Positions 5,693 through 64,000 of a DNA stretch of 64,000 nt are shown here, piece after piece. Source of the stretch: Zootoca vivipara (Eukaryota); assembly GCF_963506605.1 (NCBI RefSeq), contig NC_083279.1, positions 41,850,001 to 41,914,000 on the forward strand, written 5' to 3'. How positions within the stretch are numbered: the first letter of the stretch is position 1; every line of letters starts with the position of its first letter. The notes beneath the pieces were generated by a model. That model saw nothing but the letters and a program-made list of their open reading frames with translations. It made no database searches and was not told the origin of the DNA. The position numbers were made by a program, and so were the translations under genes.

Positions 5693-5913
5693 AAATAAAA
5701 AAATTCTTTCCAGTAGCACCTTAGAGACCAACCACGGTAAGTTTTTTATTGGTATGAGCTTTCGTGTGCATGCACACTTCTTCAGTGTCTGAAGAAGTGT
5801 GCATGCACACGAAAGCTCATACCAATGACAAACTTAGTTGGTCTCTAAGGTGCTACTGGAAGGATTTTTTTATTTTGTTTCGACTACGGCAGACCAACAC
5901 GGCTACCTACCTA
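5693..5913 (+). mobile_element. Penelope-like element (PLE) pseudo-LTR remnant, inverted plus direct copy
   Basis: Roughly 85-bp inverted repeat centred near 5787. 10-bp flanking duplication CATAGGAGCA at 5683-5692 and 5914-5923. Same family at 29633-29772 and 43481-43668. Contains a hammerhead core, typical of PLE pLTRs. Confidence 0.8.
5785..5822 (+). ncRNA. Minimal type-I hammerhead ribozyme motif
   Basis: GUGU-CUGAAGA-A-GUGUGC AU GCACAC-GAAA-GC-UC-AUAC. Stem I is GUGU/AUAC (one G-U pair), with a CUGANGA core, 6-bp stem II, GAAA, palindromic AGCU stem III and a UC cleavage site after 5818. Confidence 0.75.
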
Positions 5914-7828: not shown

Positions 7829-8410
7829 CATGGGCGTAGGCAGGGGGGCAGGAGGGGGCAATTGCCCCCCCCAGAAGTAGGGCCGCTGGCCAGCCTGCCC
7901 CGCTGCCCGCCCGGTGCCGTCTCCCTTCTCCCTGGCTGTGGGGTGGGCGGAGGGAAAGCCCCAGAGCCGCACAAAGCATTTGGCTGGCTTTCCCTCCGCC
8001 CGCCCCACAGCCAGCAAGGGAGAAGGGAGACGTCCCTTCTAGCTGGCTGGCTGTGGGGCGGGCGGAGGGAAAGCCAGCCAAATGCTTTGCGCGGCTCTGG
8101 GGCTTTCCCTCCGCCCGCCCTGGCGATCGCAGAGGGGATTGGAGCAGCCCGATTTCGGGCTGATCCTGGCGCCCCCTCGCCCCTGCCGATCGTGGAGGGG
8201 GAGGAAGGAGTCGGAGCAGCCCGATTTTGGGCTGATCCTGGCGCCCCCTCGCCCCTGCTCCGACCCCCTCCTCCCCCTCCGCGATCGCCGGGGCGGGTGG
8301 AGGGAAAGCTGGCAAGGGAGAAGGGAGCTTTCCTTGCCCCGCTGTGGCCCCTCCCCCTCCCCTTGGCCCCGCCCCTTGCCCCCCTAATTTTCATCCTGGC
8401 TACGCCCCTG
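7829..8410. mobile_element. Non-autonomous hAT DNA transposon, 582 bp, GC-rich palindromic interior
   Basis: TIRs CATGGGCGTAGGCAG / CTGGCTACGCCCCTG. Perfect 8-bp TSD TACTGGGC at 7821-7828 and 8411-8418. Confidence 0.9.
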
Positions 8411-57915: not shown

Positions 57916-58879
57916 AATTCCCAACCACACCAAGTTCATCATCCTAGCAGTGACTGATGATTGCATCTTGAATGGTCTAACCTACTTGTCATAGATGCAA
58001 GTTGGAACTTCTGCAGCAAAAACGTAGAGAGTTCTCTGCTCAGATGTACAGGGCATAAAGCTCTGTAGCTGGTCAGCATCACCAGCTGGGTCTGAAGTCA
58101 AGCTTTCTCAAGGAGAAAGATAGCTTTGGGATTTATTTCTCACTTTTTAAATTCTGAAACCTACTTTTCACGTTTCATGTTTTATTCATGTTAATTTGTG
58201 TGTTTCATGTTCAGTTTTGAGTATCTCCTTTTTCCCACATGTTTTGTTTTTTTAAAAAAAAAAAATCCAAACACAATTGTTATTATTGACCCCATGGCAG
58301 CAGAGTAGCAAAGCACATATTGATGACCATTTTGTTCCCCAGAATATCTTGATGTGGAATTGTACTAAGGCATTTTCATTTATTTTGTGCAGAGGTACAT
58401 CTGAAAGAGCCCCATTTAGTTAGATTCCCCATTCATCCTTAAATTAATACATGTACCTCTGGACCTTTTGTTTATTATAATGTAAAACTAAATATTTAAT
58501 TGTTGTTATTAGCATTCTATCTCTGAGCAACCAACTGGGAGAGGGATGGACAAAGAAAGGGAAGAGCAGTGTTCTTCCACTGATTCATTCATTCATTTAT
58601 TATTAAATTACTATCCCATTCTTCCTCCCAAATTGCTGTTGTTTGCTGTTATACTTTCGTACCTCTTCTCAGATCCTGATCTTTAAATGGTTCACAGCAT
58701 TTAAAAGATAAAAAACATGATGCAAAATCTCCCAGTATAATTATTTTTATTTCTTATAATATATAAGAAAATACTTAAGACATTTCTGAATAATTTGTCT
58801 TAGAATTATAATCAGAAATAAGTATTCAAATATGTTGCTAGGTGTTGGCATTCCTGGGATGCATGGTAGAAATAGTTTG

Positions 58880-59726
58880 TGTGGCGATACCCCGATCCCT
58901 CCCAGAGTAAATAAAGACACTGGACAAACTGCATAAGGTTAATGGGCGTTAAAAGGCCACAACTTTATTGAGTACAGATGTAGAGAGATATTGGCTTAGG
59001 CATTGGATCTAACCATCTATATCTGACTCCAGCCCGTTCTGCTGGCAGTCTGTGAAAGGTTAACCACCGTTGGGTGAGTCCTGCGATGCACATCAACTAG
59101 GGCCACCGCTAGGGGGCGTGCCTTTTGGCCCTCACCTACCACGGCTTCGGACTTGGTGACGCCCCGGACTCCTTAAGGGAGTACCCTTCAGCATTTTGGG
59201 GGAGGTGATGGCAGCAACCTCCCCCCCCCCCACCTGTAACCTTTCAGAGATAATCCAATGCCTACCGCCAAAAACCAAAGTTGTGACGAGTTGCTACGAG
59301 GTAGGTAAAAACCACCAGGCCAGAGACAATTCGCCAAGTGGGAAAATTCCTACCAGGCCCCTCAACGGCGACCAACCGAGGTCCATAGCAATGTCAGAAA
59401 GGAGGGCCCTGCCTAAAGGGAGGGTGGGCGGGGAAAACGAAGCGGCTGGGGGTCAGGAAAGAGAGACTGAATCCCAGCCGTGCGCTCACTTAAATTAGTG
59501 AGCCACGCCCCCTTGGAGCGTTCTGATTGGACACGCCAAGGGAGCACCGCGTTTGGGAGCCAGCCAATGGGCTGGGAGAATGGCAGCCACAACCTTACCT
59601 CCTTCTACGTCGGAAGTGACTTTCCCATAAGTCTGGAGCAGATCTTTGTTTCCATGTAGCTTCCTTCCATGCTAAAAGATTATGATTCTTGAGGTGGCAA
59701 GACTTGCCAATGCGAAATCGTTACCC
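58880..59726 (-). mobile_element. Probable solo LTR, minus orientation
   Basis: Abrupt GC/CpG-rich block starting TGTGGCGA. On the minus strand the order is ETS, CCAAT, CCAAT, GC box, AT-rich box (59490-59620), then AATAAA (tttatt at 58964-58969) about 85 nt from the end, matching U3-R-U5. Right boundary and TSD uncertain. Confidence 0.55.
59490..59620 (-). promoter_or_regulatory. Promoter-like motif cluster inside the putative LTR
   Basis: GCCACGCCCC (Sp/KLF, 59503-59512), CTGATTGG (59523-59530), AGCCAATG (59562-59569), CGGAAGTG (ETS, 59611-59618), CTTAAATTA (about 59489-59497). Confidence 0.45.
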
Positions 59727-60206
59727 TGTAAAAAGTGCATAGAAAAACAATAGCACATATGTTGCCAGGATATAAGAACAGTAGGGTTAAGAGAGGCTAA
59801 GAGAATATATTAGAAATCTCAGCCCCAAAGGAAATTCTAAATGATCTCAGATCAAAAACTGTTTCAGTCCTGTGGCTTGACATTAAAATATATACTGCAC
59901 TTTCTTTACCTCAGTGCCTTTGAGGCATTGTAAAGATTGTAAAGGTGCACAGAGATCAAGCAGAGTGAAGCATCAGTCTGTAATGTTTCCTCTCACAGGG
60001 ACACCCAGGTTATGAGGTTGTTTCACCAGCAGTTTTAACTTCATTGACATCCTGTATAAAATGACTGTACCTCAGACAACCATCATAGCTTTATATATAT
60101 ATATATTTTTAAAAAAACCCTCTAATAGAGTGTTAGATTTATTAGTATCTAGCTTCTGCCTATCTGATTTTGATGGGAAGAAGGAAGTGCTTTGGCAACA
60201 CTGATA

Positions 60207-60362
60207 ACATAGAAAGAGCCCTGCTGGATGACACAAAAAATCGATCTAGCTCAACCTCATTTCCTAACCAGATGCCACAAGCAGAACATGAGCACAACAG
60301 TATTTGTTTGCTTGCATTCCTAAGCAACTGGTATTGAGAGGCCTGCAACCTCTGATTCTGGA
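60207..60362 (-). mobile_element. CR1 3' UTR fragment
   Basis: acatagaaagagccctgctggat...aaccagatgcc...agcaactggtattgagaggc...cctctgattctgga, the reverse of the tail family at 22078-22142. Confidence 0.7.
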
Positions 60363-60792
60363 TACAGGGTAGTATTCAACTAAGATTTACTCTGAGCAGA
60401 CCCATTTAAATTAATGGACCTAATTTAGTTATGCTCATTAATTCTAGAAGTTAGATGAATATCACCTGCTGTATATAATCATCCTCATTAGTACCCAGTG
60501 AGAGCCTTATTGTCCAGAAAGTTAGGATTTTTTTACTACCTTGAACCACATTTTCCATTTTATCCCCATTTACACAGTTTGGAGATGTTTTTGGAGCTCC
60601 TGAGTACCCTTTTAGTTTTTAAGTGTTTAATCACCAGAAAACTTTGTCACCTCACTACTCACCCTCAACTCCAGATCATTTATGTACAAGTTAAAAGCAA
60701 CTGGTTGTGATACAGATCTGAAAGATGTCATCTTTTACATACTTCAGTTTATCATTGGTCTCTATTAAACTATTAAACCAGTTATTGATATA

Positions 60793-62103
60793 CTAGTGTA
60801 TTTCAGCCCGTTCAATAACGGGCGCTAGAACATCCTGGGGTTTGGAGAAGCGCTTGCGCAGCGCTTCTCCGAACCCTGGGACCTGTCCTTACTGTCGGCG
60901 GCAGGGGGACAGGAACGGAGGAGGAGAAAGCGCTGCTTTCTCCTCCTCCGTTCCTCTCTCCCAGCCGCCGACAGCAAGGAGACATCCTGGGGTTTGGAGA
61001 AGCGCTTGCGCAGCGCTTCTCCGAACCCTGGGACCTGTCCTTACTGTCGGCGGCAGGGGGACAGGAACGGAGGAGGAGAAAGCAGCTTTCTCCTCCTCCG
61101 TTCCTCTCTCCCAGCCGCCGACAGCAAGGAGACATCCTGGGGTTCGGAGAAGCGCTTGTGCAGCGCTTCTCCGAACCCTGGGACCTGTCCTTACTGTCGG
61201 CGGCAGGGGGACAGGAACGGAGGAGGAGAAAGCGCTGCTTTCTCCTCCTCCGTTCCTCTCTCCCAGCCGCCGACAGCAAGGAGACATCCTGGGGTTCGGA
61301 GAAGCGCTTGTGCAGCGCTTCTCCGAACCCTGGGACCTGTCCTTACTGTCGGCGGCAGGGGGACAGGAACGGAGGAGGAGAAAGCGCTGCTTTCTCCTCC
61401 TCCGTTCCTCTCTCCCAGCCGCCGACAGCAAGGAGACATCCTGGGGTTCGGAGAAGCGCTTGTGCAGCGCTTCTCCGAACCCTGGGACCTGTCCTTACTG
61501 TCGGCGGCAGGGGGACAGGAACGGAGGAGGAGAAAGCGCTGCTTTCTCCTCCTCCGTTCCTCTCTCCCAGCCGCCGACAGCAAGGAGACATCCTGGGGTT
61601 CGGAGAAGCGCTTGCGCAGCGCTTCTCCGAACCCTGGGACCTGTCCTTACTGTCGGCGGCAGGAGGACAGTAATGAAGAAGGAGAAAGCGCTGCTTTCTT
61701 CTCCTCCGTTCCTCTCCCGCAGCCGCCGACAGCAAGGAGACATCCCAGGGTTCGGAGAAGCGCTTGCGCAGCGCTTCTCCGAACCCTGGGACCTGTCCTT
61801 GTTGTCGCCGACAGGAAGGACGCGGGACACAAACCCCTACTTCGTCGCCGCTGCTTCGTGGCCTCCTGCCGCTCCTCTCACGGGCCAGGGAGGGTTGTGA
61901 GGAGGAGGTCTCCGCCGGCCTCCACCCTCGCTTCCCTGACGTTCTGGCCAGGAGCGGCGGTTGGAGGAGGCAGGGGGGGGGAGAGAGTGCGCGCGCGCAG
62001 TCTCTGCTGTCCAATCCCTGTGTCGCTGGGGCACATGCGCAGTGACCCAGGGACACACGGGACAGCTTGGACGCAGGGACAACTTGCAAATTATTATATA
62101 GGA
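60793..62103 (-). mobile_element. Complete non-autonomous Helitron (1311 bp)
   Basis: On the minus strand the 5' end is A|TCCTATATAATAA (62103 downward). The 3' end has the hairpin GCCCGTT-ATTG-AACGGGC (60806-60823), 9 nt before CTAG|T (60793-60796). Inserted between A and T with no TSD. All are canonical Helitron hallmarks. Confidence 0.9.
60829..61815. repeat. 152-bp GC/CpG-rich minisatellite, about 6.5 units, each unit an inverted dimer
   Basis: Unit starts (CATCC) at 60831, 60983, 61133, 61285, 61437, 61589 and 61741, giving spacings of 152, 150, 152, 152, 152 and 152. Confidence 0.97.
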
Positions 62104-62496
62104 TGAGTCCCCAACCTTTTATTCCATGACTGCTAAATTTACTCAGAAGCCTTCGGTGAAGAAAGGAGTCAAAAGCTATTGGAGAGTATGCAGTGCCTAT
62201 TGCCAGATGAGCAATAAATGTAGATGAGAAAAGAGAACAGAATCTTGAGTTCAGTGTTGGCCCCTTTTAATGCAACATCCATCAGATGTGTTCCTCCTAT
62301 TATCCTGTTTTTAATTTGGAAATAACACATGTGGAGTATTCTCAGGCTGTTCTCACTGCTGCCTCCCCAATACCCCTATGCACTCTGTTTCTACCTGCTC
62401 TACTCCAACCTTCCCTTGTTGAGTGGGAAGTTCTAAAGGCAGTTTGAAGGTCAGGTGAACATGATGAGAAGCCTTCTATTCAACATGGGGAGGTGG

Positions 62497-63332
62497 TAAA
62501 ACTAGCACTAATACGCCCAGGAACCTCACCAAAATGCTAGAGAGGGTGCACCTCAACAGGCACATATTTCCACATGTGGTGGGAGTGCCCCCAAATCCAA
62601 CTATTCTGGACAACAACCATAAGAGAAATATGTAAAATAACCAAGCAAACATTAGAAATAACTCCAGAATTGGCCTTGTTAAACATCTTCCAAGACAATA
62701 ATGCCCACCTACATCACAAAGAACTCATAACCCACTTACTCACAGCAACAGAAAAACCATAACCAGACACTGGAGAGACTTATCAGGAGTAAGCATGGGC
62801 AAATGGTACCAAATAGTATGGGAAACAGCCTTACTAGAAAAATTAACCAATAAGCCGAAACTGACACGGGGACAAATAGAAGAATGGCTCCCCATTATTG
62901 CATACACAGCCCAACAAGACAATGACAAAAATCCACCAACAGCATACAAATAAATATGGCTAGCCTGATCCAAAACACCCACCCACCCCACTCACACACG
63001 AAACAAAGATCATCACAGCCAACCACAAATGAACAACCATATCCCAGGCCAACCCCCAACATCTCTCACCACTAAAGGAACACAAGTGAACAGCAGAGAA
63101 CCTACACAAGTGACGCTGACAAAAAAAGAAGAAGCAAAACCCCACATATATTAAGCAAAATAGAAACATCATCACCCCACCCCCACCCCCACCCCACCCA
63201 CCCTTCCCTCATCTACCTCTTTTCCTCTTTTCTTCCCAATGTCTCAACAAATGAAACTGATTTGCAAAAATGTTACGAGAGACATTGCACATATTTCTGT
63301 AAACCAATAAAATCTTTAATAATAATAAAAAC
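62497..63332 (+). mobile_element. 5'-truncated L1-clade LINE (ORF2 CCHC zinc knuckle, 3' UTR, polyA signal)
   Basis: SPKC*RGCTSTGTYFHMWWECPQIQLFW fits the CxxC...HxxWxC motif. AATAAA near 63306 and an A-rich tail. Near-perfect TSD CATGGGGAGGTGG (62484-62496) / CACGGGGAGGTGG (63333-63345). Confidence 0.88.
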
Positions 63333-63565
63333 CACGGGGAGGTGGAAGAGGAAGGGCAGGTATGCATGACCTGAATCCTCTACTTGTGTTGTGATTGTGA
63401 ATCCTATAAGTACTAACATACACATTTAAATGGCTTTCCATTCACTTGGTGTTCATGCATTGGCAAGCCTTAGCCAATTTTGTGGTTTTATAGTATGTGA
63501 AATAAGACATCTCAAAAGTGCATTTAGATCACATAGTGCTCGATTATCCATCTCTGTAGAATTCA

Positions 63566-63650
63566 CAAAATCAAAGAACTGTAGAGTTGGAAGGGATCCC
63601 GAGGGTCATCTAGTCCAACCCCCTGCACAAGCAGGAATCACAGCTAAAGA
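63566..63650 (-). mobile_element. CR1 3' tail fragment
   Basis: aatcaaagaactgtagagttggaagggatcccgagggtcatctagtccaaccccctgcacaagcagg. Confidence 0.85.
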
Positions 63651-64000
63651 CAGGTCATTCTGGATGGGGAAAAGACAGGCACACTTCTGCTAGTGTATAT
63701 GGGACACACTAGTGAGCTGCATAATAATTTTTTAGGATTTGCTGCCTGAATGAAAGCTGTCACATATTCAACTTGATTTTAGCTACTTGGTACAGTAGAT
63801 TTAAATATAAATCTAATAATAATGTCATTGTCATGGCCTGGTTAGATGCAGATTAATAGTGGGAGGAACCAGAGTTGATCGTTCTATGTGTTGTAGCAAA
63901 CTAACTCAAGGGGAAGGTCAGAATAGAGAAAGGAGGGGAGCTTCTGGCATGATGGCCATTGATGATGCAGCTGACATTCACTTCCTCGTCAAGTCTAAAG

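Follow-up and report, generated by a model that had tools for sequence, protein, structure and literature searches.

We consider it probable that the 152-bp minisatellite in the window studied here, a 64,000-nt stretch of the Zootoca vivipara genome, is carried as cargo by a young non-autonomous Helitron mobilised in trans, and that its unit was seeded by two fold-backs and then multiplied by head-to-tail duplication. Helitron-borne minisatellites are already known, and what appears to be new is their fully self-complementary two-hairpin form, for which we found no paper. The Helitron family is probably still moving, since its transposases are intact and near-identical and the insertion is polymorphic; within it, relatives of different age provide a dated, unrooted vertebrate series that begins with single fold-backs and ends with palindromic arrays of 17 units. 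In this way at least 2,225 exact hairpin cores have recently spread, or roughly 0.3 Mb of DNA that is rich in CpG and capable of forming cruciforms.

The host element, its copies and its autonomous partner

The minisatellite lies within an element whose termini can be read directly, and the features to which we refer, in window coordinates, are as follows.

60793–62103, minus strand: whole non-autonomous Helitron, 1,311 bp, member of a dispersed family
62000–62103, minus strand: 5′ terminal region, TC start, TA-rich, matching an intact autonomous Helitron at 91–93% over the latter's first 103 nt
61816–61999, minus strand: GC-rich unrepeated head
60830–61815, minus strand: 152-bp minisatellite, 6.5 copies in the order A-B-A-B...-A, with 7 A and 6 B hairpins
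61743–61791, no strand: first A hairpin, 22-bp perfect stem
about 61615, 61463, 61311, 61159, 61009 and 60857: centres of the other A hairpins
61517–61561, no strand: one B hairpin, 21-bp perfect stem with an imperfect extension to about 45 bp
about 61691 (degenerate), 61387, 61235, 61084 and 60933: centres of the other B hairpins
60806–60823, minus strand: Helitron subterminal 3′ hairpin, 7-bp stem, 4-nt loop
60793–60796, minus strand: 3′ terminal CTAG, followed by the target T
60786–60792, no strand: 3′-junction flank, 6 bases of which are also absent from an empty allele, as read from alignment coordinates alone

The element shows the canonical Helitron traits, namely a 5′ TC, a 3′ hairpin followed by CTAG, and an A|T target, and it sits between an A (62104, minus strand) and a T (60792). 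Helentrons and DINE-1 elements are recognised by subterminal inverted repeats and a TT target; membership in that group was rejected on the A|T target and the TC and CTAG ends. An earlier reading of the letters, hereafter the preliminary description, had proposed a mobile cassette that spreads CpG-rich DNA within a Helitron, and this is supported by the ends, the target and the dispersed copies, and by the composition of the array (63% GC, CpG observed/expected 0.75 versus 0.20 in the rest of the window).

Copies elsewhere in the genome carry the same unit between the same ends. The 5′ 121 bp of the element found 1,670 genome candidates, sister families included, of which 40 were scored, and there are 480 exact matches to the family-type 3′ end. 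Among the first 30 of these 3′ ends by position, the A hairpin adjoins 27 (2 of them assigned through overlap with previously parsed loci) and other cargo adjoins 3. The exact A core has 2,225 occurrences, and the first 50 of them fall at 17 loci, all with terminal Helitron sequence and 16 with both ends. We parsed 94 whole elements with a procedure that demanded both ends, one mismatch allowed, and made no demand on the flanking bases; 91 lay in the configuration A|...|T and the other 3 head-to-tail, directly after another Helitron's CTAG, the 5′ start being TC in 91 and TT in 3, and the 3′ end CTAG in 93 and CTGG in 1. Array length differs among copies, as had been anticipated, from 1 to 17 units, and the longest arrays, mostly of 9–17 units, belong to the youngest subfamily, in a sample that is biased to young elements because most copies were best-scoring hits. 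Near 18.186–18.189 Mb of G000:C6 three Helitrons are nested (L051/L052): an autonomous copy has received, at its 5′ end, an element of a second family, whose own 5′ end contains a member of the window family, and both insertions lie exactly at A|T and without duplication. Separately, three near-identical 10-unit copies within 85 kb (G000:C6:93557974-93641900) suggest local hopping, and a Helitron derivative with the family-type 3′ end (L048:7214-8990; L132-L134) holds about 1.3 kb of captured host sequence including a SINE-like piece, with three copies within 10 kb on C1.

A genome search with PF14214 gave 24 matches. In 8 of these the frame is open over 1,658 codons, and they mark eight intact, near-identical copies of a 6.58-kb autonomous Helitron (L031-L038; G000 C1:43682393, C1:43699542, C1:119238279, C2:115242712, C3:101616951, C6:18182421, C6:24172606 and C10:57321048). 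Compared with the reference copy, five of the remaining seven reach 99.9–100% identity, and two carry a small internal duplication. The 1,658-aa RepHel has Pfam Helitron_like_N and PIF1 domains and matches Helraiser (7LCC) with 1,647 bits, aligning over the full 1,307 tested residues; because it aligns along its length with Helraiser, peel-and-paste is the likely model for its movement. Helraiser (Helibat1) is a reconstruction, whereas the lizard has eight natural intact copies of a probably active vertebrate Helitron; hairpin cargo goes unmentioned in the portion of the Helraiser account used here (PMC5876387).

In a by-eye comparison, 99 of the first 107 residues of the lizard RepHel are identical to Xenopus laevis Heli1Xen1, an element that shares the TC...CTAG ends, the TA-rich 5′ end and the CCCGTT...AACGGG 3′ hairpin (PMC12001565). 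The parts of that report drawn on here record Heli1Xen1 in Lacertidae, with hundreds to more than 20,000 non-autonomous copies per genome, and describe a recent invasion with insertion polymorphism in X. laevis (PMC12001565); they leave the interiors of the lizard non-autonomous elements undescribed, the strings "palindrom" and "inverted" being absent from the main text. The preliminary description knew of no account of the family; the host family is published, and the hairpin interior was not found in print. The window Helitron is likely mobilised in trans by an intact RepHel of the Heli1Xen1 type, a link that rests on matching ends: besides the first 103 nt, the last 41 nt, spanning the subterminal hairpin, are alike at 86%, and the two elements have nothing of the array in common. 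The polymorphic insertion and the 3 head-to-tail junctions bear on mobilisation only indirectly. The autonomous element lacks long hairpins, and the minisatellite that it carries is a direct repeat of 83 bp; derivation of the unit from it was rejected on these grounds.

The window insertion appears to be very young and polymorphic. In run X5, from another sample and another study, a 1,651-bp contig record of depth 52.1 covers 59900–60785 (record positions 341–1232), and a record of equal length, depth and strand covers 62103–62500 (record positions 1233–1624), the two abutting at 1232/1233. From these alignment coordinates alone we infer that both records are one contig over the empty site, an allele that lacks the element and 6 further bases. 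In run X3, too, a contig departs from the window sequence at 60785, with 425 letters of its own still to come, and run X1, perhaps the source, continues into the element.

Structure and folding of the array

The tandem-repeat finder TRF called the array at 60830–61815 with a period of 152, 6.5 copies and 97% matches, and 13 axes spaced about 76 bp apart confirm the proposed array of inverted ~76-bp halves. Several details of the preliminary description needed adjustment. The 17-bp A stem, attributed to every unit, is perfect in 4 of 7 units and has a mismatch in 2 of 7, while the 22-bp A stem was indeed found, in 1 of 7; the 21-bp B stem with its 3-nt loop is perfect in 4 of 6, one of the others having a shortened loop and one being degenerate; and the linkers, described as mutual reverse complements, match at 15 of 16 positions. 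The two strands, taken to be near-identical, are only 82% alike (36 opposite-orientation pairs, maximum 87%). The peptides of plus- and minus-strand open reading frames are similar, as had been pointed out, but as by-products of a stop-poor, GC-rich unit rather than of near-identical strands, and a coding role for these frames was rejected because they belong to frame-rotating, stop-poor GC repeats.

Folded as DNA, a two-unit strand reaches −157.7 kcal/mol versus −56.9 ± 4.1 for 100 shuffles (z −24.5; 0 of 100 shuffles as good), and the minimum-energy fold of the whole element is a single long nested duplex, in agreement with the suggestion that the array could form one. The longest perfect duplex run in the array is 21 bp. 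Elsewhere in the window (60.8 kb), and leaving (TA)n aside, there are 3 other comparable hairpins. A 38-bp perfect hairpin with a 3-nt loop at 5748–5826 is probably a tiny MITE. A GC-richer stretch at 59000–59640 is possibly a retroelement 5′ end; it holds what we take to be CCAAT-like boxes and, near 59105–59120, a presumed CTCF-like motif.

Probable fold-back seeding, and recurrence of the form in other transposons

The reading that we favour places the origin of the unit in two overlapping fold-back (template-switch) duplications, whose overlap of about 21 bp would leave a direct repeat 152 bp apart; that repeat would then seed slippage or unequal exchange, and the unit would be multiplied through direct head-to-tail duplication. 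The fold-backs may form where exposed single strands are copied by error-prone DNA synthesis linked to transposition, a setting that would be common to rolling-circle and cut-and-paste elements, and the cargo would be selfish and unselected. Two copies, neither of them rooted, are compatible with a unit that began with two fold-back junctions. One (L151) carries a fold-back about B with 75-bp arms that are 89% alike, which bears out the earlier view of the halves as inverted homologues. The other, a divergent relative (L099), has a single A and a single B hairpin. Their arms share about 21 bp, and the A+B block is thereby bracketed by a direct repeat with a spacing of 152 bp. Single overlapping A+B fold-backs in older relatives are, on comparison of copies, the likely seed; the order of fold-back first and tandem growth second is read from divergent relatives in an unrooted comparison, in which L099 and L151 could be derived. 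An origin of the A-B linker from the 3′ terminus was considered and dropped, the linker in L099 being the mirror of the other linker.

Fold-back copying appears to be recurrent. The heads of several subfamilies contain further inverted copies of upstream sequence, and in sister subfamilies part of the GC-rich head is swapped for such an inverted copy; a second Helitron family shows a similar path, with a chain of about 9–11 hairpins in L091/L093 and, in the middle element of the L051/L052 nest, an array of a 129-bp two-hairpin block. Non-autonomous Helitrons of 1.0–1.3 kb with chains of 6–11 long hairpins were seen at eight loci (L091, L093, L095, L107, L114, L117, L119, L120), and these are the likely source of the 129-bp unit.

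Among known systems, the closest likeness is to minisatellites carried by Helitrons and Helentrons, which likewise combine a short non-autonomous element, a tandem array of variable length and genome-wide spread; examples, as far as the portions of these reports used here go, are the 166-bp arrays of Xenopus Heli2Xen (PMC12001565), Helitron-borne satellites in Caenorhabditis elegans (PMC4595182), Helentron arrays in oyster (PMC7492417) and DINE-1 (PMC4067079). In those same portions the known units are either direct repeats or sequences with no more than short palindromes, such as the 10-bp motif of C. elegans, whereas the lizard unit consists of two abutting hairpins throughout, with arms of about 38 and 55 bp in its older form. 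The bat Helitron paper PMC4224331 makes no mention of minisatellite, palindrome, tandem or hairpin, and in the open literature, Repbase, Dfam and the Heli1Xen1 FASTA aside, we found neither a two-hairpin self-complementary Helitron unit nor an account of such units converging across transposon superfamilies.

The same architecture is present in cut-and-paste transposons. Flanks masked for Helitrons (352 kb) held 46 long hairpins, some from overlapping loci, with 24 in one element. At L045:88-2785, terminal inverted repeats (TIRs) flanked by TA enclose inverted arms of about 450 bp and a two-axis array of 11.7 copies of 132 bp, whose halves are 80% identical when inverted versus 99% in the same orientation; from its TIR we take this element to belong to the Tigger-like superfamily. 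Its exact core has 84 occurrences at 31 loci, some of which contain one switch of orientation, and TIR and TA were found together at 3 further loci of the family (L186, L188, L191). In FB, Galileo and Xenopus Xstir, which are likewise non-autonomous DNA transposons, long inverted arms are combined with tandem repeats in the interior, and it is this Tigger-like element that they resemble, the window element having unlike Helitron ends rather than TIRs. Four hAT-like MITEs (L103, L123, L015, L147) of about 345 bp, L147 being shorter, contain 95-bp two-axis palindromic units, with an 8-bp target-site duplication (TSD) that is exact in 2 of 4, near in 1 and absent in 1. The window itself has a hAT-like MITE at 7829–8410, with an 8-bp target duplication, a GC-rich interior, a fold-back with 88-bp arms and a 72-bp tandem duplication.

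The occurrence of the form in TA-flanked Tigger-like elements and in hAT-like MITEs with 8-bp TSDs speaks against the idea, contained in the preliminary description, that it depends on rolling-circle replication, and because the architecture recurs in unrelated cut-and-paste elements a general process is suggested. BLAST among the three long units (152, 129 and 132 bp) found no similarity. A common cause, for example transposition-linked repair synthesis, would be the simpler reading. A bolder proposal, which we regard as speculative and rather unlikely, is that non-autonomous Helitron, Tigger-like and hAT-like elements in this lizard converge on fully self-complementary two-hairpin minisatellites: fold-back synthesis during transposition would generate these, and the folded strand would help the element to replicate. 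If true, transposons would have a general and so far undescribed way of giving rise to palindromic satellites. Orientation differs between the two kinds of element: the symmetric-ended Tigger-like family is mixed at 6 of 24 multi-hit loci, whereas whole Helitrons show no such mixture.

Selection at the level of the transposon itself, in which folding of the displaced strand primes second-strand synthesis, protects or compacts the strand, or brings the ends close to each other, so that hairpin-rich copies out-replicate others, seems to us improbable. It draws support from the three unrelated two-axis arrays in young non-autonomous elements, from the long arrays of the youngest subfamily and from the excess of the family-type 3′ end over the autonomous-type pattern (480 versus 247 exact occurrences), although exact-pattern counts favour young families. 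Yet 13 of 26 sister non-autonomous elements have spread without a long hairpin, as has the autonomous element, so the hairpins are not needed to move, and the commonest young units have a broken A stem. In a set of 49 different A stems and 55 different B stems, pairing has not been kept by compensatory change, with 248 one-sided breaks, which include neutral and necessarily one-sided post-insertion mutations, versus 11 compensatory cells (about 3 events).

Head-to-tail growth and function

Growth of the array is best followed by comparing its halves. Over 58 arrays, inverted neighbours are 83.1% identical (n = 594, maximum 89.6%) and next halves of the same orientation 97.2% (n = 533), the corresponding figures for the window array being 82% versus 96%. 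No A loop is reversed among 361 in whole elements, and 5 loops are symmetric. Unit variants form higher-order patterns common to several loci, with gains and losses in direct register, and at L174 a 6-unit block is duplicated. Because same-strand halves are the closest, loops are never reversed and changes are in direct register, we attribute growth to direct tandem duplication; the series of alternately inverted halves then follows from the geometry of a tandemly repeated pair of abutting hairpins.

The preliminary description had instead derived the array from strand switching in rolling-circle replication, each half being laid down as an inverted copy of the previous one. As a model of array growth this is largely refuted, and we consider it very unlikely. 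The halves are indeed homologous inverted copies, and the part of PMC5876387 used here has Helraiser moving one strand, which implies that a displaced strand exists. In the same account, however, no free single-stranded circle takes part when the displaced strand is copied (PMC5876387), no pair of inverted neighbours is more than 89.6% identical where same-strand halves average 97%, loops are not reversed in whole elements, and cut-and-paste MITEs have a like architecture. Units flipped at an axis, which count in favour of the model, were present in two broken loci: one (L145/L146:~1490-1770) is a 281-bp piece that lies in a TAA/TTA tract and has two 3′ ends, and the other (L166:~1440-1910) has no 3′ end. 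The whole-element census leaves out such broken copies by construction, and rare new switches at an axis would be dead ends, because the Helitron loses one of its two unlike ends. At L052, a 1-nt change perfecting the A palindrome in 5 units looks like hairpin-templated correction.

Tandem inversion duplications in Salmonella are said to arise through two fold-back junctions that give alternately oriented copies, whose direct repeats then allow amplification. The part of the ODIRA work used here describes a similar succession (PMC4689423). In so far as these accounts go, both concern kilobase gene amplicons with near-identical inverted copies, whereas the lizard halves are 76 bp long, 83% alike and transposon-borne; the near-identity of adjacent inverted copies expected from a TID/ODIRA-like path is not what the arrays show (83% versus 97%).

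The array is on present evidence selfish cargo rather than a host function. That it serves the host as a source of hairpin RNA (siRNA or ADAR substrate), as suggested in the preliminary description, or as a regulatory CpG island, is extremely unlikely. In its favour are the strong fold predicted if it is transcribed, the CpG-island-like composition and a few family-like reads on both strands. These reads numbered 140, 10 and 25 of ~7.5 million in three RNA-seq runs (6% read, tissue unspecified), were mostly partial matches from related families, and in 64–94% of cases run into unlike sequence; none in these runs fell on the unique flank 62133–62500. The same runs gave no A-to-I editing signal, the one A>G site being also in DNA contigs, and a search of 58000–64000 against Rfam returned no match. 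The insertion is in addition polymorphic and very young, the stems are decaying and perfect duplex stops at 21 bp. Within the scope of these three RNA-seq runs, an RNA role is unsupported.

An artefact of assembly or sequencing, through palindromic chimeric reads, is a negligible prospect: unit number at the locus does rest on the assembly sequence, but an identical unit order recurs at many loci with different flanks, the halves are only 82% alike, and contigs of four runs contain words of the family at very high depth.
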